64,000 bases of DNA from Bdellovibrionales bacterium (GTDB lineage: Bacteria; Bdellovibrionota; Bdellovibrionia; Bdellovibrionales; UBA1609), in the NCBI GenBank assembly GCA_965200875.1, contig OZ241456.1, positions 1,152,001 to 1,216,000 of the forward strand. Direction: 5' to 3'. A program made the translations under genes and the position numbers. This document shows positions 7,486-29,520 of the stretch, piece by piece. The notes under the pieces are model-generated. The model had not been told where the DNA came from. It saw only the letters and a program-made list of their open reading frames with translations, and searched no databases. Within the stretch, counting starts at the first letter, position 1, and each line of letters opens with the position of its first letter.

Positions 7486-7978
7486 ATTTTATGTTTCGGG
7501 ATTTTCAGTGAACAAATAAAGTCCTGTTTTTTATTTTTTAAAAAATATATTTACTGGATTATTGGCTGGTTTTTATAAATAATCCGACTTTCTGGCTATA
7601 TTTTCCGGCTGAGAAACAATGAAAATGGGATTCATTCCACAATCTCCCAGAATCAGATCGGTGTGAGGAAGTTGCGAATGTGAAATAACCCTATAATCAT
7701 TTTCGCACTCATTATAAGCCTTACAACTATTATGCCACGCTTTTTCAAAATCTGCTTTTACTTCACGCGTCCATTCATATTTTGGTTTTAACATATCACA
7801 CATCTCCCAATATGTAAAAATACACAAAAAAGTAGTTTTTAAGACAAGACTGTTTATTAAATTGAAAAACCATAAAATCCTCTTTGCCTATGTTCATTTT
7901 CAAATTTTACTTGTGGATAAAAAAGGCGAACAGGTGTAAAATCTCTTCAAAAGGTTTTTACTTTTTTGCCTTTCTTAC

Positions 7979-8054
7979 GGGGCTGTAGCTCAGCTGGGAG
8001 AGCGTAACGCTGGCAGCGTTGAGGTCAGGGGTTCGATCCCCCTTAGCTCCACCA
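7979..8054 (+). tRNA. tRNA-Ala (GGC)
   Basis: GGGGCTG/TAGCTCC acceptor stem, anticodon arm TAACG-CT-GGC-AG-CGTTG, GTTCGAT T-loop, encoded CCA. Confidence 0.97.
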
Positions 8055-8222
8055 TTTATAATTGGTCGTTCGTGAAAATCCAGTTTTTGAAAAAAATTCG
8101 GAATATTCGGAAAAATTCGAATCTCGAATTTTTACTCCCTCAAAACCCCTTAAATCTCCTGTTTTTAATGATCCTGATTTTGCATAAAGAAGAATCAATA
8201 ACTTTTAAACAAGGAGTATATT

Positions 8223-9128
8223 ATGCAAAAAACAAAGAAAAAAATAAGCAAAAACAAAGAAAAAAACCGCGCTTTGTTGGTCAACTTAACTAAAAATGGA
8301 AACTTTAAAAACTACTTTAAACTTTGTAAGCCCGCTTTAAAATCTCTTCTTAAAGCTTTCCTCCCACTCCCTGAAAAAAGCTCCATCCAACAAGTAACTT
8401 TACTGGACTCCTTTCTCCCTTCCATGAAGGAAGAAGACAAAAGTGCTATTATGGACCTTAGACTTCAGCTCAATACGGGTGAATTGGTTAATGTGGAAAT
8501 GCAGGCTTTTTTTCATCCAGGTTTTTCTGAAAGAGTATTGTTCTATTGGGCTAAAAATTATGTATCTCAATTAAAAGAAGGAGAAGAATATACAAAACTC
8601 TGTCCTTCTTATTCGTTGATATTCAGTGTGTTTGATCTATTCCCTGGTCGAGAAGGGTTTTACAATTCTTTTTACATTCGTTCGAGCAAGCCACCACATT
8701 TTCCTTTTAACAAGGATTTGTGTTTTGTGACAGTGGATCTTAGCAAGTTTCATCAAAAAGATGTAAGTTCTTCGATTGATTTTCAGGAGCTATGGTGTTA
8801 TATTTTAAAGAAGTCAAACAGTGTAAAAAATAAGGATTATCAGAAGCTTTTAGATAAAGATTCTGATTGGAAGGAGGCTATGATGTATTTGCGTAAGTTT
8901 TCGTTGGAGGAGCAACAGCAGATTATCGCAGATGCCAAGGAGAAAAACCGCCGTGATCGAGTGGCGAGAGAAACTTATGTCTTTGAACAAGGCAAAGCAG
9001 AAGGCGAAGCCAAAGGCAGAAATAAGCTGATTATTAGTATGTTGAAAAATGGTGTCAATATGAATTTTATCGCCAAACATACAGGGATCTCCGTGGAAGA
9101 AATCAAAAAGCTGAAAAAAGGAAAGTGA
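8223..9128 (+). CDS. Rpn family PD-(D/E)XK nuclease / putative transposase
   Basis: IMDLRLQL...VNVEMQ...RVLFYWAK core; C-terminal EQGKAEGEAKG...IAKHTGISVEEIKKL typical of Rpn proteins; next to a tRNA. Confidence 0.88.
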   Translation: MQKTKKKISKNKEKNRALLVNLTKNGNFKNYFKLCKPALKSLLKAFLPLPEKSSIQQVTLLDSFLPSMKEEDKSAIMDLRLQLNTGELVNVEMQAFFHPGFSERVLFYWAKNYVSQLKEGEEYTKLCPSYSLIFSVFDLFPGREGFYNSFYIRSSKPPHFPFNKDLCFVTVDLSKFHQKDVSSSIDFQELWCYILKKSNSVKNKDYQKLLDKDSDWKEAMMYLRKFSLEEQQQIIADAKEKNRRDRVARETYVFEQGKAEGEAKGRNKLIISMLKNGVNMNFIAKHTGISVEEIKKLKKGK

Positions 9129-9133
9129 AACAA

Positions 9134-22247: not shown

Positions 22248-22511
22248 ACTTTTTGATTGGACCAACCTTAAAACAGAAGCCACAACTTTTATTGACAAAT
22301 CCGCAAAAGAAAAACGCATGGATCTCCTTTAAATGTGTCAAAGGAGGCCAGGGATTTGATAACTCGTCCTATTTTGTATATTTTAAAACATATCTGGCGA
22401 CTTGATGAATCAAAAGTGAAAGAGCTTTTTACGATAGGTCAGGGTCTTAGTTCCAGTGAGCGAGAGGCATTGATCGGTCGAGCAGTAGATTATATACGGC
22501 GATATGATCCA
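22248..22511 (+). repeat. 264-bp direct repeat, copy 1 (internal fragment of broken Rpn gene)
   Basis: Near-identical to 28435-28698, from ACTTTTTGATTGGACC to GATATGATCCA. Confidence 0.92.
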
Positions 22512-22742: not shown

Positions 22743-23402
22743 ATGAAATTAATAATTACTTTACTATTTTTAAGCTTAGGTGCTTTTAGTTATGGCCAGA
22801 ATGAGGCTGAACAATCTTCTAGAAAGGTGGAAAGTGACACTCCTATTGGTATTATGGCGACTATTTATGATTTGTATGGCCTGTATGACCGGGTCACTGG
22901 CTCTTCTTCATGTAATATAAATAATTATTTTAATGAATATAGATATAAAGAAAGGAAGGATATATTTAAGTGTGATTTGCAAGGAGCGGATATGCGAGAG
23001 GCGAATTTGAGTAATGCTACTTTGAATTTTTCGAATTTAATAGAGGCAAATTTGAGTTTTGCAAATTTACATAAGGCACATGCAGTAGGTTCAAATTTTT
23101 ATAAAGCAGATTTGACTGGTGCAGATTTGCGGGAAACGATATTGGTTGACGCAAATTTTTTAATGGCAGATTTGACTGGGGCGAATATGTCTGGGGCGGA
23201 TTTGCGTTTTTCAGGTTTTAAACTGGCGAATTTAACTGGGGTGAATCTGACTGGGGCGGATTTGCGTTTTGTGTATTTTAGTGACACGAATTTTACTGAT
23301 GTAAATATGAGCAATGCAAAAGTTGATCCAGACTTGGCGACTTTTTTAACTTCACAAGGTATAAGTGGTTTTATTGTTGTTGATGAGGAGGAAGGTAAAT
23401 AA
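22743..23402 (+). CDS. Secreted pentapeptide-repeat protein (cassette 1a)
   Basis: Signal peptide MKLIITLLFLSLGAFSYG; A(D/N)Lxx repeats; AAGGAGG RBS. Confidence 0.92.
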   Translation: MKLIITLLFLSLGAFSYGQNEAEQSSRKVESDTPIGIMATIYDLYGLYDRVTGSSSCNINNYFNEYRYKERKDIFKCDLQGADMREANLSNATLNFSNLIEANLSFANLHKAHAVGSNFYKADLTGADLRETILVDANFLMADLTGANMSGADLRFSGFKLANLTGVNLTGADLRFVYFSDTNFTDVNMSNAKVDPDLATFLTSQGISGFIVVDEEEGK

Positions 23403-23971
23403 TGAAATTAATAATTGCTTTACTTTTTTTAAGCTTAGGAGCTTTGAGCTATGGCCAGAATGAGGCTACCTGTAATATTGATAATTATCGAGACTATATT
23501 TATACACCCGGAAATCATCAGTGCGATTTGTTCAGGGCGGATTTGACTGGGGCGAATTTACAAGATGCAAATTTTACTGGGGCGAATTTGGGCGGGGCGA
23601 ATCTGACTGGGGCGAATTTGCGAAGGGCGAATTTGTCCAATGCGAATATAGCTGGGGCGATTTTGACCAATGCGGATTTGGAAGGGGCGAATTTGTCCAA
23701 TGCTAGGTTGATAATGGCGAATTTGGTATGGGGTAATTTGACTAATGCGAATATGTACGGGGCGAATTTGATAATGGCGGATTTGACTGGGGCGAATTTG
23801 TCCAATGCTAGTTTGATAATGGCGAATATGTACGGGACGAATTTGTACGATGCGGATTTGACAGGGGTAATTTTAACCTCTGCGAAAGTTAATCCGGCCT
23901 TGGCGACTTATTTAACTTCACAAGGTGTAAGTGGTTTTGTTGTTGTTGAATTTGAGAATTTGAGGAAATAG
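23402..23971 (+). CDS. Secreted pentapeptide-repeat protein (cassette 1b)
   Basis: TAATG overlap with upstream gene; signal peptide; ANLTG/ANLSN repeats. Confidence 0.92.
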   Translation: MKLIIALLFLSLGALSYGQNEATCNIDNYRDYIYTPGNHQCDLFRADLTGANLQDANFTGANLGGANLTGANLRRANLSNANIAGAILTNADLEGANLSNARLIMANLVWGNLTNANMYGANLIMADLTGANLSNASLIMANMYGTNLYDADLTGVILTSAKVNPALATYLTSQGVSGFVVVEFENLRK

Positions 23972-24031: not shown

Positions 24032-24070
24032 CGAAAAGCCTGTCTACCTCAGACGGGTTTTTTCGTTTTC
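24032..24070 (+). terminator. Intrinsic terminator at cassette end
   Basis: CGAAAAGCCTGTCT-ACCTC-AGACGGGTTTTTTCG hairpin plus T-tract. Confidence 0.75.
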
Positions 24071-24076
24071 TGGAAA

Positions 24077-24233
24077 GGGAATCATAAGCAACCGGGGTCG
24101 GTTGTATATCGCGAAAGGGGGGTTACGGTTTTCCCCCGTCTCAAAACCCCCTTTTTATGCACTTATTCCCGCGGGAAAAGATGGAGACCCACCCACCGCG
24201 ATATATGATGCCCCCCTTTTCTTTATGATTCCC
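24077..24233. repeat. ~157-bp imperfect palindromic inter-cassette element E1
   Basis: GGGAATCATAA...TATATCGCG...TTTTCCC / GGGAAAA...CGCGATATA...TTATGATTCCC. Confidence 0.92.
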
Positions 24234-24340
24234 TATATATTTTTAATAGTCGTGTAAATATTTCACGGGCTTGTTTTTTTATTAAGTGTTTTTCATAAAC
24301 ACCTGTATTATGCAAATAAACCCAAACAAGGAGGTTACTA

Positions 24341-24934
24341 ATGAAATTAATAATTGCTTTATTGTTTTTAAGCTTAGGTGCTTTGAGCTATGGCCAGAAT
24401 GAGGCTAAGGCTACCTGTAATATTGATAATTATCGAGACTATATCTATACGCCAGGAGAGCATAAGTGCGATTTATCAGGGGCAGATTTTACCGATGCGG
24501 ATTTGACTAGGGCGAATTTGACTAGGGCGAATTTGACTAGGGCGAATTTGACTAGGGCGATTTTGACCAGGGCGAATTTGTACGGGGCGAATTTGTACGG
24601 GGCGGATTTGACTAGGGCGATTTTGGTTGAGGCGGATTTGAGATATGCGAATTTGTACGGGGCGAATTTGTACGGGGCGGATTTGACTAGGGCGATTTTG
24701 GTTGAGGCGGATTTGAGATATGCGAATTTGCGAGGGGCAACTTTGCGATGGGCAACTTTGCGATTGGCGAATTTGTACGGGGCGGATTTGTTCATAAGTA
24801 AATTTGGTATTAAAGGGGCATTTTTTTCTGGGGCGAAAGTTGATCGGTTCGCAGCGTATTTTTTATACCCACTAGGTATAAGGGATTTTGTTGTTATTGA
24901 AGACGACCCTGCAGAAAACATAATAAATGAATAA
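24341..24934 (+). CDS. Secreted pentapeptide-repeat protein (cassette 2)
   Basis: N-terminus nearly identical to cassette 1b; ANLTR tandem repeats. Confidence 0.92.
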   Translation: MKLIIALLFLSLGALSYGQNEAKATCNIDNYRDYIYTPGEHKCDLSGADFTDADLTRANLTRANLTRANLTRAILTRANLYGANLYGADLTRAILVEADLRYANLYGANLYGADLTRAILVEADLRYANLRGATLRWATLRLANLYGADLFISKFGIKGAFFSGAKVDRFAAYFLYPLGIRDFVVIEDDPAENIINE

Positions 24935-24998
24935 ACACTTTACTGTCTAGGAGGCAGATAATCTTCTACATTATAATTTTCATAACTTCCTTTGGTTA

Positions 24999-25038
24999 GA
25001 AGAAGCCTGTTTTAATCTCAGACGGGTTTTTTCGTTTT
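24999..25038 (+). terminator. Intrinsic terminator at cassette end
   Basis: GAAGAAGCCTGTTT...AGACGGGTTTTTTCGTTTT, homologous to 24032-24070. Confidence 0.65.
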
Positions 25039-25044
25039 GAGAAA

Positions 25045-25201
25045 GGGAATCATAATCAACCGGGGTCGGTTGTATATCGCGAAAGGGGGGTTACGGTTTT
25101 CCCCCCGTCTCAAAACCCGCTTTTTATGCACTTATTCCCGCGGGAAAAGATGTGAACCCACCCTCCGCGATAGATGATGCCCCCCTTTTCTTTATGATTC
25201 C
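25045..25201. repeat. Inter-cassette palindromic element E2
   Basis: Left arm nearly identical to E1; ends TTATGATTCC. Confidence 0.92.
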
Positions 25202-25277
25202 ATTTATTTTTTATAGTTTTCGCCGATAATGTAAAAAGATAGGTGGATAATTAATTCACTTTAAAAAGGAGTATTTT

Positions 25278-26029
25278 ATGAAAACTATAATTGCTTTATT
25301 GTTTTTAAGCTTATGTTTTTTAGGTTGTGAGAAAAAAGATAGTGGTTCAAGTGGAGCAACCACCGCCGGTGCTGAAGCTGGCGCGGGATCAACCACCGCC
25401 GGTGCTGAAGCTGGCGCGGGATCAACCACCGCCGGTGCTAACCCTAGTGTAGTGGTTAACACAGCAGGTTCTGAAGCTGGAGTAAATGTTCAATCGGAAG
25501 CGGATGCTCCAGTGTGTAATATCTATAATTACAAAGAGTATATAAAAAAAAACGGAGAGCATAAGTGCGATTTGTCCGGTGCGAATTTGCACAGGGAGAT
25601 TTTGCAAGGCGCGAATTTGCAAGGCGCGAATTTGCAAGGCGCGAATTTGACAGAGGCGGATTTGGGCTATACGAATTTGAACCATGCGAATTTGAGCAAT
25701 GCGAATTTGAGCAATGCGAATCTGTACTGGGCGGATTTGCAAGATGCGAATTTGAGCAATGCGAATTTGAGTAATGCGAATTTGAGAGCGACGGATTTAC
25801 ACAGGTCGGATTTGAGCGGTGCGGATTTGAGCGGTGCGGATTTGAGAAGTGCGAATCTGTACTGGGCGGATTTGCAAGATGCGAATTTGAGCAATGCGAA
25901 TTTGGTTGAAACTATTTTGCGAGGGGTGAATTTCACCGGTGCGAATTTCACCGGTGCGAAAGTTAATCAGAGGTGGCGAATTATTTACTCTCAAAAGGTA
26001 TAGTCGGATATAAAATTGTCGAAGACTGA
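25278..26029 (+). CDS. Lipoprotein pentapeptide-repeat protein (cassette 3) with 3' frameshift
   Basis: FLGC lipobox; 33-bp tandem repeat linker; pentapeptide repeats; ORF stops at 26003 but the family C-cap EVANYLLSKGIVGYKIVED* continues in another frame to 26029. Confidence 0.85.
25357..25439 (+). repeat. 33-bp tandem repeat x2.5 (TTAGAEAGAGS)
   Basis: CAACCACCGCCGGTGCTGAAGCTGGCGCGGGAT repeated. Confidence 0.9.
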
Positions 26030-26062
26030 ATTGTATTTATTTTTCATAATTCCATTTGTTGT

Positions 26063-26100
26063 GAAAAGCCTCTGTATCTCAGACGGGCTTTTTCGTTTTT
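26063..26100 (+). terminator. Intrinsic terminator at cassette end
   Basis: GAAAAGCCTCTG...CAGACGGGCTTTTTCGTTTTT. Confidence 0.65.
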
Positions 26101-26106
26101 AGGAAA

Positions 26107-26261
26107 GGGAATCATAAGCAACCGGGTAGCTGTTATATATCGCTTTTAGGGGTGCACATTTTCCCCCCAGAATAGAGGCGTTTTTATGCAGTTATTTCCC
26201 AGAGGAAAACTGTGACCCACCCACCGCAATATATGATGCCCCCCTTTTCTTTATGATTCCC
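26107..26261. repeat. Inter-cassette palindromic element E3 (most diverged copy)
   Basis: Same GGGAATCATAA/TTATGATTCCC ends; internal arms differ from E1/E2. Confidence 0.9.
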
Positions 26262-26337
26262 TTTTATTTTTTATAGTTTTCGCCTATAATGTAAAAAGAT
26301 AGGTGGATAATTAATTCACTTTAAAAAGGAGTATTTT

Positions 26338-26592
26338 ATGAAAACTATAATTATTATCTTTTGTCTTTTGTTGTCCATTGGAGCTTATGCTAGTGGGGAC
26401 ATGCAAACATTAAGGGACATGGATGCAATTCAACAGGAATACCAGCGCATACAATCAAATTTAAATGACCTTGATCGTCGGTTTAATCAGGCAATGCTAA
26501 AACTATATGACATGCAAAGTGAAAAAAGAAACCTTGAGCAAAATCTTAATCAATGTATTCAACAGCTTAACCGGCAAAATTCCCAGCAATAA
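26338..26592 (+). CDS. Small secreted coiled-coil hypothetical protein (cassette 4)
   Basis: Signal peptide ending AYA; Q/N-rich heptads; leader and RBS nearly identical to cassette 3. Confidence 0.75.
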   Translation: MKTIIIIFCLLLSIGAYASGDMQTLRDMDAIQQEYQRIQSNLNDLDRRFNQAMLKLYDMQSEKRNLEQNLNQCIQQLNRQNSQQ

Positions 26593-26596
26593 AACT

Positions 26597-26681
26597 GGCG
26601 TTTTTTGGCACTTATTCCCGCGGGAAAAGATGTGAACCCACCCACCGCGATGTATGATGCCCCCCTTTTCTTTATGATTCC
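26597..26681. repeat. Half element E4 (right arm only)
   Basis: GGCGTTTTTTGGCACTTATTCCCGCGGGAAAAG...TTATGATTCC; no left arm or terminator. Confidence 0.88.
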
Positions 26682-26789
26682 TTTTATTTTTTTTACAGGC
26701 GTGTAAAGATTTCACAGTGCTATTTTTTTATTAGTGGTTTTTCATAAACACCTGTATTATGCAAATAAACCCGAAAAAGGAGGTCACTA

Positions 26790-27395
26790 ATGAAATTAAT
26801 AATTACTTTACTTTTTTTAAGCTTAGGTGCTTTGAGCTATGGCCATAGTCCAAAGCCCGCGCCATTTCCTGTTATGCTGTTCCAATTTGATTATTGGCTA
26901 TTCTCTGACTCTTCATGTGATATCGAGAATTATTTTGATGAATATAGATATAAGGAAAGGGCTGATATATTTAAGTGTGATTTGCAAGGAGCGGATTTGC
27001 GAGATGCGAATTTGAGTGATGCTACTTTGAATTTTTCGGATTTGGAAGATGTAATTTTAACCGATGCGAATTTGTACAAGTTACATGCAATAGGATCAAA
27101 GTTTAATAAAGCAGATTTGACTGGTGTAGATTTGCGTGAAGCGGTATTACAAAACGCGCTTTTGCTCTGGGCGAATTTGAGCAATGCGAATATGGCCGGG
27201 GCGAATTTGACTTTTGCGAGTTTTGCAGAGGCGAATTTGAGTGGTGCAAATTTTACAGGTGCGCTTTTGCGTAATGCGTATTTTGGAAATGCGAAATTTA
27301 TTAACGAGGCGATTTTTACCGATGCGAAAGTTGATCCGGATTTGGGTGCTTATTTAACCTCACATGGTGTAAGTGGTTTTATTGTTGTTGAATAA
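26790..27395 (+). CDS. Secreted pentapeptide-repeat protein (cassette 5), paralog of cassette 1a
   Basis: Shares EYRYKER.DIFKCDLQGAD and AKVDPDL with 22743-23402. Confidence 0.92.
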   Translation: MKLIITLLFLSLGALSYGHSPKPAPFPVMLFQFDYWLFSDSSCDIENYFDEYRYKERADIFKCDLQGADLRDANLSDATLNFSDLEDVILTDANLYKLHAIGSKFNKADLTGVDLREAVLQNALLLWANLSNANMAGANLTFASFAEANLSGANFTGALLRNAYFGNAKFINEAIFTDAKVDPDLGAYLTSHGVSGFIVVE

Positions 27396-27439
27396 AATTA
27401 CTCTGATTTTTATATAATTTTCATAATTCCTTTTTTGGT

Positions 27440-27479
27440 GAAAAGCCTGGCCCATATCCTGTCGGGTTTTTTCGTTTTT
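27440..27479 (+). terminator. Intrinsic terminator at cassette end
   Basis: GAAAAGCCTGGC...GTCGGGTTTTTTCGTTTTT. Confidence 0.65.
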
Positions 27480-27485
27480 AGGAAG

Positions 27486-27642
27486 GGGAATCATAATCAA
27501 CCGGGTGCGGTTGTATATCGCTAAGGGTGGGTGACCATTTTCCCCCCGTCTCAAAACCCCCTTTTTATGCACTTATTCCCGCGGGAAAAGATGGTGACCC
27601 ACCCTAGCGATGTAGATTGCCCACCCTCTCTTTATGATTCCC
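27486..27642. repeat. Palindromic element E5, adjacent to the recombinase stop codon
   Basis: Arms TATATCGCTAAGGGTGGGTGACCATTTTCCC and GGGAAAAGATGGTGACCCACCCTAGCGATGTA are near-perfect inverted repeats. Confidence 0.92.
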
Positions 27643-27649
27643 ATGATAT

Positions 27650-28234
27650 TTACTCCAGGCCGTTTCTGTCTGCCACCCGCAACACACTTGTTTTGTGCCA
27701 GCGTTTTCCCCACCTTGAGGGTTCGCCTTGTTCGTTTAAAGCATCGGCTATTTCCTGAAATGTCTTTCCCTGACGCCTTAGAAACTTAATGAATGGAATA
27801 ACCCGCTTGTCCTCTCTTTGGGCCTTAGTAAGCTTAGGTGGTGGTGGTGGTTCTTTCTTTGCCTTTTTCTTTTGTTCTTTTACAATAGCTTTGTGTTGTT
27901 TTTTATATTCTCTCCAATACCGGTGTAACCCCCGTCTCACAGCCGGGATATGATACCCAAGCTTTACACCTTGTCTCTTTTTCTCAGCCAGGGCCTCTTT
28001 GGTTCGCTTGGCTATTTGTTCACGCTCCCACCTGGCCATAACACCCATGAACCCGATTGTTTCACGGGTCGCCTCCGGCATATCACAGCACACAAATTTA
28101 ATAGCAGTGTTTTGCAACCAGCCGATAAAAGCCAAGTCACGGCTTAAGCGATCGAGCTTGGCCACAATCAAAGTGCACAATAAAGATAGCCTAGAACGAT
28201 TTTCTGTAAATACCTCTTTTTTTGACTCTTCCAA
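27650..28234 (-). pseudogene. Serine recombinase (resolvase/Pin-like catalytic domain plus C-terminal recombinase-type DNA-binding domain), N-terminally truncated
   Basis: LIVAKLDRLSRD, MARWEREQIAKRTKEAL..K..G.KLG, FQEIADALNEQG.PSRWGKRWHKTSVLR; no YxRVS catalytic motif seen upstream. Confidence 0.85.
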
Positions 28235-28324
28235 AGAAGTTCAGGAGATAAGTCTTCTTTAATTCCTGCCAAAACTCTTTTATTTTATTGACAAAAATCT
28301 TTTTATATTCCATTTTCCAGAGCT

Positions 28325-28980
28325 ATGAAAACAAAAAGAAATTTTTTACATGATCATTTATTCAAAGAAGTCTACTCGCAAACCAAATATTGTGTGGACA
28401 TATTAAGTCTTGTTCTCTCAAAAGAGGAAATGAAACTTTTTGATTGGACCAACCTTAAAACAGAAGCCACAACTTTTATTGACAAATCCGCAAAAGAAAA
28501 ACGCATGGATCTCCTTTAGATGTGTCAAATGAGGCCAGGGATTTGACAACTCGTCCTATTTTGTATATTTTAAAACATATCTGGCGACTTGATGAATCAA
28601 AAGTGAAAGAGCTTTTTACGATAGGTCAGGGTCTTAGTTCCAGTGAGCGAGAGGCATTGATCGGTCGAGCAGTAGATTATATACGGCGATATGATCCAGC
28701 ATTTAATTGGGAGATTGTAAAAGAGATTGAACAAGCCACAGTGAAAGAGGAGGGAAGAATTATGATGCCATTATTAAAATCTTCGTATGATGAAGCTAGG
28801 CAGGAAGGCATGCAACAAGGCCGTCAGGAAGGTATACAGGAAGGCATGCAACAAGGCCGTCAGGAAGGTCAAAAAGAGCTGATTGCAAAATTACTTAAAA
28901 CTGGAGTGGATTTGCAAGCTCTTTGTAAAGGTACAGGACTTTCCGAAGAAGAAATTAAAAAACTTAAAACTGACGACTAA
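28325..28980 (+). pseudogene. Rpn/YhgA-like (transposase_31) nuclease with internal deletion and stop
   Basis: HDHLFKEVYS...FID...RMDLL then stop at 28519; downstream part has QEG repeats and TGLSEEEIKKL; middle of the protein missing. Confidence 0.82.
28435..28698 (+). repeat. 264-bp direct repeat, copy 2
   Basis: Matches 22248-22511. Confidence 0.92.
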
Positions 28981-29031: not shown

Positions 29032-29520
29032 TTATTCAACAACAACAAAACCACTTATACCTTGTGAAGTTAAAAAAGTCGCCAATTTCTGATCAACTTT
29101 CGCACCGGTGAAATCCGCCCCATTCAAAATCGCACCGGTAAAATGCGCATAACGCAACCACGCCTCGGAGAAATTCGCCCCGATCAAATTCGCATTCGCA
29201 AAATTCACCCATTGCAAAGACGCATAACTAAAATTCACCATTTGCAAAAATGACCCTTGAAAATTCGCATCAGCCAAATCCGCCCAGCTAAAATCCGCGC
29301 CGTTCAAATCCGCGACACTCAAATTCGCATTACGCAAATTCGCATAGCTAAAATTCGCCCCTTGCAAATATAACTCGTTTAAATTCACTTCTTGCAAATT
29401 ACAATTATGCCGGCCCGGCTGAGTCACAAAATCCAAAAAGTTATCCTTAGTACATCTTTCATTTTGGCCATAACTAAAAGCACCTAAGCTTAAAAATAAT
29501 AAAACAATTATAGTTTTCAT
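29032..29520 (-). CDS. Secreted pentapeptide-repeat protein (outlying paralog)
   Basis: Signal peptide, ANFS/ADL repeats, C-cap AKVDQKLATFLTSQGISGFVVVE. Confidence 0.92.
   Translation of the reverse strand: MKTIIVLLFLSLGAFSYGQNERCTKDNFLDFVTQPGRHNCNLQEVNLNELYLQGANFSYANLRNANLSVADLNGADFSWADLADANFQGSFLQMVNFSYASLQWVNFANANLIGANFSEAWLRYAHFTGAILNGADFTGAKVDQKLATFLTSQGISGFVVVE

Follow-up and report, generated by a model that had tools for sequence, protein, structure and literature searches.

Integrons are arrays of one- to three-gene units parted by a conserved, imperfectly palindromic and polar site (attC), and the order of the units varies among arrays. Sites of serine recombinases, such as res (Tn3/gamma-delta, Sin) and the att sites of serine integrases, have a central dyad of ca. 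24 to 28 bp that is flanked by accessory sites, together with phased A-tracts; those of the res type that are known are one-sided, consisting of site I and accessory sites. In Xanthomonas oryzae pv. oryzicola, short-spacer clusters of transcription activator-like effector (TALE) genes form reshuffled arrays of secreted repeat proteins with a conserved two-part spacer of ca. 132 bp, for which a breakpoint mid-spacer has been proposed and the enzyme is not known (PMC5512977). Here, we studied a nearly mirror-symmetric element of 157 bases that recurs between genes in a 64,000-nucleotide stretch (C1:1152001-1216000, here called the window) of the 1.87-Mb genome of a Bdellovibrionales bacterium (G000). 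The element is real and conserved in its lineage. In the way it works, it resembles integron arrays or res sites, yet its features place it outside integrons, MITEs (miniature transposable elements with inverted repeats), IS607 and Xer sites. Its halves are swapped independently, a pattern more in keeping with a recombination site for gene shuffling than with a hairpin of folded RNA or DNA.

Genome-wide, we found 10 full copies and 34 arms at 13 loci; the window accounts for four of the full copies plus a half copy, all on the plus strand. The copies of ca. 157 bp with inverted arms described in the initial annotation were found as full elements at 24077..24233 (E1; 24-bp core at 24143-24166), 25045..25201 (E2; core at 25112-25135), 26107..26261 (E3; core at 26172-26195) and 27486..27642 (E5; core at 27553-27576). 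The exception was E4 (26591..26681), a half element made up of the core and the right arm, whose left arm was lost directly 3' of the stop codon of the upstream gene; a paralogue of that gene (C1:1511240) retains its left arm. The three symmetric blocks reported for the arms were present, with departures in E2, which ends in TTATGATTCCA and has GCGATAGA, and in E3, which has GCAATATA and GAGGAAAA. Left-versus-right similarity was above that of shuffles in all 10 full genomic copies (z, 4.0 to 8.7), and E5, which adjoins a serine recombinase, was indeed the most symmetric (score of 27, versus 4 to 21 for the others). The pair of GGGTG(G/C)G motifs spaced by 22 bp was also seen in E5 (element positions 18/40, complement 113/135), the single copy with exact pairs on both arms; 2 further copies of the 10 had an exact pair on one arm. 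Autocorrelation across 22 arms from three genomes peaked at a lag of 22, with a broad maximum from 20 to 27 and a z of 7.3 that is inflated because these arms are related. The core, previously described as asymmetric, holds a 24-bp dyad (consensus AAAAC...G(T/C)TTTT; A4-16 bp-T4) centered on the element axis, with a central T5 tract in 7 of the 10 copies that is flipped to A5 in the other 3. Both element ends carry a -10-like TATGAT facing outward. Longer forms (C1:1075913-1076150, 647480-647800 and 1250835-1251000; G009 L049:7560-7830) have an insert that we take to resemble an IHF site, and two HU/IHF-family genes are encoded in G000. At C1:1075913, two arms point to divergent genes.

The two arms varied independently of each other. 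Sites within an arm were linked (Mantel r of 0.40, 0.63 and 0.78; p of 0.008, 0.02 and 0.002), and linkage across the core was absent (Mantel r of -0.03 to 0.12). Mean r2 was 0.29 within the left arm, 0.23 within the right arm and 0.15 across (permutation mean, 0.11; p, 0.11), and sliding-window linkage was 0.03 to 0.12 at alignment columns 55 to 76, compared with ca. 0.4 to 0.7 inside most of the arms. The left arm of E3 was paired elsewhere with other right arms, and its right variant with another left arm. Three mosaic copies (C1:1510677; G320 L317:6451, 1166693) had a different partner on each side, with the joint ≤7 bp from the center, and the wider flagged mosaic windows all extended to the central ca. 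10 bp. The left half of the E3 core was the reverse complement of the right core half in the copy at C1:1326391-1326547. A lone 24-bp core without arms (7816..7839, minus strand) and the core at C1:1328843 have the same upstream flank; the two diverge inside the core. The core usually stays when an arm is deleted (E4; C1:704353, 758852, 761281, 512654 and 758138), and the edge of conservation is sharp at its left, at the AAAA. Taken together, the data show exchange over the full length of the unit, and the break is strongest at the core and immediately to its left.

The element is polar: after a terminator comes the left arm, then the 24-bp dyad core, the right arm and the next gene. Throughout the genome, 12 of 16 left-arm tips followed one terminator module and 21 of 25 right-arm ends were followed by a co-oriented open reading frame (ORF), 16 of these 21 with a signal-peptide-like start as judged by eye, all these counts being made without a chance control. 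The remaining four right-arm ends were two that face recombinase tails and two without an ORF. Among the cargo were pentapeptide proteins, a leucine-rich-repeat lipoprotein, a Dam-like methyltransferase, a pilin and small unknown genes. The same types of cassette had different neighbors in different arrays, that is, gene order varies; the lipoprotein-like gene between E2 and E3, for instance, has a 92%-identical copy at C1:1327243-1328321 with different neighbors and another gene following.

Diverged homologues of the element separate other secreted-protein genes in three or four relatives belonging to two genera. Within the genus, little was detected by BLAST or with a full-length model. Loci fetched around intact recombinases gave diverged arms in G010 and in G321, a member of another genus, with 0 arm matches in 830 kb of control loci. 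A model of the 22 arms, trained on G000, G010 and G321, had matches in 5 of 109 genomes of the family: those three, G320 (21 matches), which is independent of the training set, and G372, with a single marginal match. The secreted-protein families bordered by the homologous arms of G321, G010 and G320 are different ones. Full elements of ca. 215 bp lie between secreted-protein genes of G321 (with pentapeptide-like repeats by eye), with the left/right polarity seen in G000 and a changed terminal block on both arms. The arms of G320 lie upstream of secreted-type genes, some with beta-solenoid repeats, and a conserved core whose left edge is sharp precedes 21 of 22 arms examined there. A left terminal block was recognizable in 6 of 22, at -92 to -107 (chance of 0.086 per search interval). 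A core-like 32-mer beside a palindromic repeat (AAAATGGCGTTTCC...GGAAACGCCATTT) was also noticed in G011 (loci L003, L006 and L129) and G014 (L002), genomes in which neither arms nor a recombinase were found.

The initial annotation had proposed that differences between copies keep the symmetry, and it offered two inferences, a folded hairpin or a symmetric platform for protein binding. The former would be an attC-like or REP-like (repetitive extragenic palindromic) hairpin recognized as a single strand by a tyrosine recombinase or an HUH enzyme, or else a structured RNA. Single copies do fold far better than shuffles (E5 as single-stranded DNA, z of -6.9; E1 as RNA, z of -4.5), and 92.8% of the cells in the proposed helices pair. 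Over the 10 copies, however, coordinated changes were not borne out. The covariation term from RNAalifold was +0.32, a separate covariation score was reached by 118 of 500 shuffles, and the symmetry of arms with their own partner was 16.3, against 17.1 for all pairings (p, 0.89; arms only, as the version including the core, with a p of 0.996, is confounded by the T/A-tract flip). The ATCGC(G/T) column given as an example turned out to hold G:C in 4 copies, T:A in 2 and mismatches in 4. In G320, the two terminal variants were mismatched in 4 of the 6 copies showing both. Single arms are common in G000 and G320, the element matches no Rfam family, and G000 has two PF00589 genes (C1:439785 and 1733526), presumably XerC and XerD, both far from all arm loci. 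The absence of covariation together with unlinked arms makes a conserved hairpin unlikely, and we give the folded strand as a whole very little weight. The coordinated examples first seen reflect either chance pairing in shuffled arms or template switching; the latter process, which homogenizes arms and inverts spacers according to the available part of one report (PMC8604942), can also generate the good pairing of E5.

This sets the element apart from attC in several respects. The repeated polar site bounding cassettes was confirmed here, as in integrons. Unlike in integrons, there was no IntI-type tyrosine recombinase beside any array, no conserved fold, covariation or complementarity of own arms, and the element ends are not attC R-boxes by comparison with their consensus; in addition, the cassettes bring their own terminators and promoter-like regions.

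The second inference, a symmetric multi-subsite platform of the res/att type, fared better: it fits polar arms with a period of ca. 22 bp across two genera, a retained dyad core and mosaics joined near the core. The reading that we favor, at a little less than an even chance with the uncertainty about the enzyme included, is a double-stranded multi-subsite recombination junction, with a core for exchange and arms as phased accessory sites. From the observed anatomy, polarity, arm independence, changed gene order and homologues in relatives, we infer strand exchange at the core, binding of protein to the arms and the identity of the enzyme. A cassette would consist of the right core half, the right arm, a promoter region, one or more genes, a terminator, the left arm and the left core half, and a full element would form where two cassettes join head to tail. 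The exchange site would be the 24-bp dyad core, which lies on the axis, and exchange near the central T-tract would reshuffle arms and gene order. The arms, each seen as three G-rich units at a ca. 22-bp period in inverted orientation, may serve as accessory binding sites building a synaptic complex. Homologous recombination, arm deletion and template switching could later have blurred the pattern. If the junction model is true, secreted repeat proteins, those likeliest to contact host or prey, are rearranged and exchanged in these bacteria by a dedicated route. A more specific version, which we regard as speculative and rather unlikely in its entirety, is an integron-like shuffling system of small-genome Bdellovibrio-like bacteria, in which an episome-borne serine recombinase of ca. 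250 residues would act on a two-armed, 22-bp-phased site of 157 to 215 bp to excise, move and reorder self-contained cassettes of secreted repeat proteins, the res-like multi-subsite site serving cassette capture and not multimer resolution.

The neighboring gene that could provide the enzyme is a small serine recombinase (PF00239 and PF07508) on the minus strand, convergent with the array, of which the 3' part is found at 27650..28174, with its stop codon 7 bp from the right end of E5. This remnant lacks the first ca. 73 residues, including the catalytic serine motif. All 3 matches to PF00239 in G000 were partial, and both remnants that have kept their 3' end adjoin a right arm; the two abutments probably derive from one ancestral event. 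Intact forms with 95% identity occur in other samples, three members of the cluster being on contigs of 27 to 30 kb, and 1,750 homologues were found in one search; in viral contigs, at least 597 matches were confirmed. With the intact relative P0001 as query, GTDB and viral collections yielded distant relatives only. The structural model of P0001 (pLDDT, 89.7) combines a catalytic domain of the resolvase type with a long helix and a C-terminal domain that is small and helical, and among PDB structures it best matches serine integrases and resolvases; the protein stays below every NCBIfam family cut-off. Just upstream of an intact recombinase in G321 lies a left arm with a core-like tract. The gene is convergent to secreted-protein arrays in G009, G010 and G006, including a tandemly assembled element of 15.4 kb in G010 that has one gene family in common with a G000 array.

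With regard to a serine recombinase site, the central dyad is present and retained, with three narrow central joints as well as off-centre ones, and the enzyme is adjacent in G000 and G321, present in G010 and G009, and not found in G320. The likeness to res and att extends to the adjacent recombinase with its resolvase catalytic domain. Unlike known res sites, the element has arms on both sides, is multicopy and bounds cassettes, and the enzyme differs from those of res and att in its short PF07508-type C-terminal domain; two inverted accessory arms around one dyad have no direct counterpart among the serine recombinase sites compared. A resolvase-type enzyme acting as an integrase is exemplified by ORF14 of phiRSM, which uses a 13-nt tRNA core according to the accessible text (PMC3816273). 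Given the junction model, we consider the small recombinase abutting E5 the leading candidate, at about even odds. If so, the element would be the first defined substrate for a widespread, uncharacterized family of small resolvase-plus-recombinase-domain enzymes. The earlier suggestion that the neighboring recombinase binds the element is thus kept as a lead, given that no catalytic serine is left in G000 and that the gene does not track the element across relatives. Other enzymes, integrase-type ones included, were no better at tracking it: of the 5 genomes with arms, IS110 is present in 2 and Y1 in 3. The flanks of IS110 had no notable match to the element.

Two further observations concern the history of the recombinase genes. 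An Rpn/YhgA-like module cuts the 5' end of the recombinase at two loci and at different codons (window 28258-28980/22248-22511 and C1:682605-683967), suggesting repeated independent inactivation of an ancestral divergent Rpn-recombinase pair. Nine recombinase pieces, mostly 5' truncated, were found at G009 loci L043 to L047, where the 3' tails repeatedly cap operons of small cysteine-rich lipoproteins, with no long spacers.

A number of results weigh against the recombination junction. One pair of regions was weakly linked across the core (L2-Rflank; r, 0.26; p, 0.043), and four-gamete incompatibility was high inside the arms too (0.48 and 0.61, versus 0.68 across). The mosaic search was anchored on the core, which biases it to central joints, and the number of copies is 10. 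Off-centre joints were found where the identity of E5 with C1:1326391 begins only at about +25 and that of E3 with the same copy stops at about -21, and the terminator module is where the insertion that tells C1:1247-1252 kb apart from 850-852 kb is located. Taken alone, a strict 2-bp serine crossover does not account for a T5 or an A5 tract between the same arms, the spacing from A4 to T4 is 16 bp in some genomes and 14 bp in others, and the middle of the G321 element is ca. 100 bp. As for the enzyme, neither PF00239 nor the recombinase was found in G320 (88% complete, 21 arms); seven genomes with the recombinase (G002, G005, G006 and G289 to G292) had no arm by model R2; and G009, which also has it, showed weak arm-like pieces only. 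Arms in G321 and G010 were found via the recombinase and used in training. Across 89 recombinase loci, a strong inverted repeat right after the stop codon was seen at the window locus only (z, 18.7), the second G000 remnant scoring 2.8 and three viral loci 3.2 to 5.5 with unrelated repeats, so that there is no general tie of the recombinase 3' end to an inverted repeat.

The main rival, and a strong one even if we judge it somewhat improbable, draws on several of these results. The element could be a cis-regulatory or architectural platform, with phased sites for a repressor, an activator or a nucleoid protein upstream of secreted-protein promoters, spread only by RecA-type homologous recombination and duplication, the recombinase remnant being a passenger. 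Most copies in G320 consist of the core plus the right arm upstream of a gene (the left block in 6 of 22), and the element persists there although no recombinase was found; breakpoints lie off center and the arms are mosaic inside; the repeated unit reaches far past the element into the terminator, promoter and signal peptide; and 10 of 15 genomes from the genus have core-like A/T-tract motifs lying loosely ahead of genes. Against such a platform, the distance from arm to start codon is variable (39 to 124 bp for 19 of 21 in G000 and about 80 to 300 bp in G320), which is unusual for a sigma-70 activator site, and promoter-like matches in the element region were at chance level (16 versus 16.1). 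Furthermore, the inverted second arm behind the upstream terminator is conserved, with left-type features of its own, in both G000 and G321. Even as a regulatory platform, this would be an apparently undescribed conserved element.

We also compared the element with mobile repeats. Like a MITE, it has terminal inverted repeats around a non-coding core, and it could be a relic in which the 157-bp unit itself moved, or in which the cassette is a mini-transposon, its inverted ends of ca. 75 bp bearing repeated sites for a transposase and coming together at the core. The outward TATGAT at both ends and three units at a ca. 22-bp period, recalling Tn7/Mu-type ends, would suit such an origin. Correia elements (CREE) come close in the accessible part of their description, with lengths of 153 to 157 bp, terminal inverted repeats, internal-deletion forms and an IHF site in long forms (PMC2649163). 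According to the same text, CREE are evenly scattered with target duplication (PMC2649163), while our copies are polar, confined to 13 loci and clustered at cassette joints, and their halves occur and recombine separately. By eye, there was neither a consistent target duplication nor TG...CA tips, and no transposase family tested tracks the element. We consider this origin quite unlikely. IS607 ends share helically phased subterminal motifs over 60 to 80 bp that nucleate a serine recombinase complex (PMC6188088). They differ, in the portion of the report available, in having no terminal inverted repeats and 9-bp motifs at steps of 10 to 11 bp (PMC6188088); TnpA has an N-terminal DNA-binding domain, and the protein here scores 30.5 against a cut-off of 110. 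The TALE spacer appears unrelated in sequence and genes; it lacks long inverted arms with 22-bp phasing, and the available text on it describes no recombinase neighbor (PMC5512977).

The G-rich arms raised one more alternative, a G-quadruplex triggering gene conversion among secreted-protein genes, as upstream of pilE in Neisseria, a comparison drawn from abstract-level text. The genes are mosaic paralogues and the bottom strand of the E5 right arm reads G3-T-G3, 15 nt, G3-T-G3. Since the strict pattern occurred in 2 of 22 arms and the loose one in 5 of 22, this explanation appears extremely improbable.

The element is apparently undescribed, with no Rfam, plasmid or phage match. No description of it was found in the literature searched, mostly at abstract level, and neither PLSDB plasmids nor INPHARED phages matched it. 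A scan of JGI metagenomes with two terminal blocks gave 33 loci, 0 of which resembled the element under the profile, and the pattern found in viral contigs (3 loci) lay entirely inside control loci without an arm match. A riboswitch or other known structured RNA was rejected with Rfam, which gave two chance-level matches at E ≤5 in window 22-30 kb, both outside the element, and one tRNA only at gathering score in 122 kb of arrays. An Xer/pdif site of 11-6-11 bp was likewise discarded, as there is no second 11-bp arm 6 bp from GGGAATCATAA; a search of G000 with the dif consensus as commonly known gave no clear dif for comparison.

The array in the window is an island between the aconitase and pyruvate-phosphate-dikinase genes (names assigned from reading the translations), with 6 co-oriented genes with signal-peptide-like starts, 5 of them with pentapeptide repeats. 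Because ppdK lay within 1.5 kb downstream of the aconitase gene in 0 of 14 congeners, no empty site could be defined. On the plus strand, the first unit comprises two pentapeptide-repeat genes with signal-peptide-like N termini judged by eye (22743-23402 and 23402-23971; Pfam was run on the first), followed by an intrinsic-terminator-like hairpin before E1 (24033..24063), a module repeated ahead of E2, E3 and E5. Further pentapeptide-repeat genes lie between E1 and E2 (24341..24934), between E2 and E3 (25278..26003, the lipoprotein-like one) and between E4 and E5 (26790..27395), and between E3 and E4 there is a small coiled-coil-like gene with a signal-peptide-like start (26338..26592) and no Pfam family above the cut-off. 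At the 3' side, the convergent recombinase remnant is followed by the broken Rpn/YhgA-like nuclease module (28258..28980, plus strand), which stands in place of the recombinase 5' part and of which a 264-nt piece recurs at 22248-22511. Rpn loci were enriched near arms (8 of 23 within 5 kb, compared with a random mean of 1.9), and because their spacing is not fixed, we read this as shared residence in variable islands. Related sequence was found in run X3, labeled as a sponge metagenome.

Other genes accompany the arms as well. Arms in G000, G010 and G320 have phage-type DNA methyltransferase genes beside them; the neighbor is an HNH gene in G321, and G320 also has an ORF judged HNH-like by eye (C1:913383; L264:4479; L312:3757 and 5589; L260:2272). 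A cos-like packaging site, considered on account of these HNH and methyltransferase genes, was dropped because the second contig of 43 kb has no arm; this contig (G000:C2) looks phage-like and has no recombinase either. In G010, a 31.5-kb contig (L054, G010:C2) is a tandem of the 15.4-kb unit. It carries iteron-like repeats, a lone core and a recombinase with a frameshift, together with a pilin gene and small secreted-type genes, and it has genes in common with the second contig and an array of G000; it is probably an episome. Run X7, which stems from another study, has a contig on which two pieces bearing the element are ca. 470 nt apart instead of 900; this may be a paralogous locus. The joints listed from such sequencing-run contigs, which are fragmented, are mostly paralogue artefacts. 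In the window, a tRNA gene (tRNA-Ala by eye) and then an Rpn-like gene with a duplicated 82-nt tail (7980-9130) lie 140 bp from the lone core. Finally, an extra pentapeptide gene on the minus strand (29032-29520) sits just outside the array with no arm adjoining; the family that it shares with the gene at 24341..24934 has 71 matches in G000, compared with 0 to 22 in congeners.

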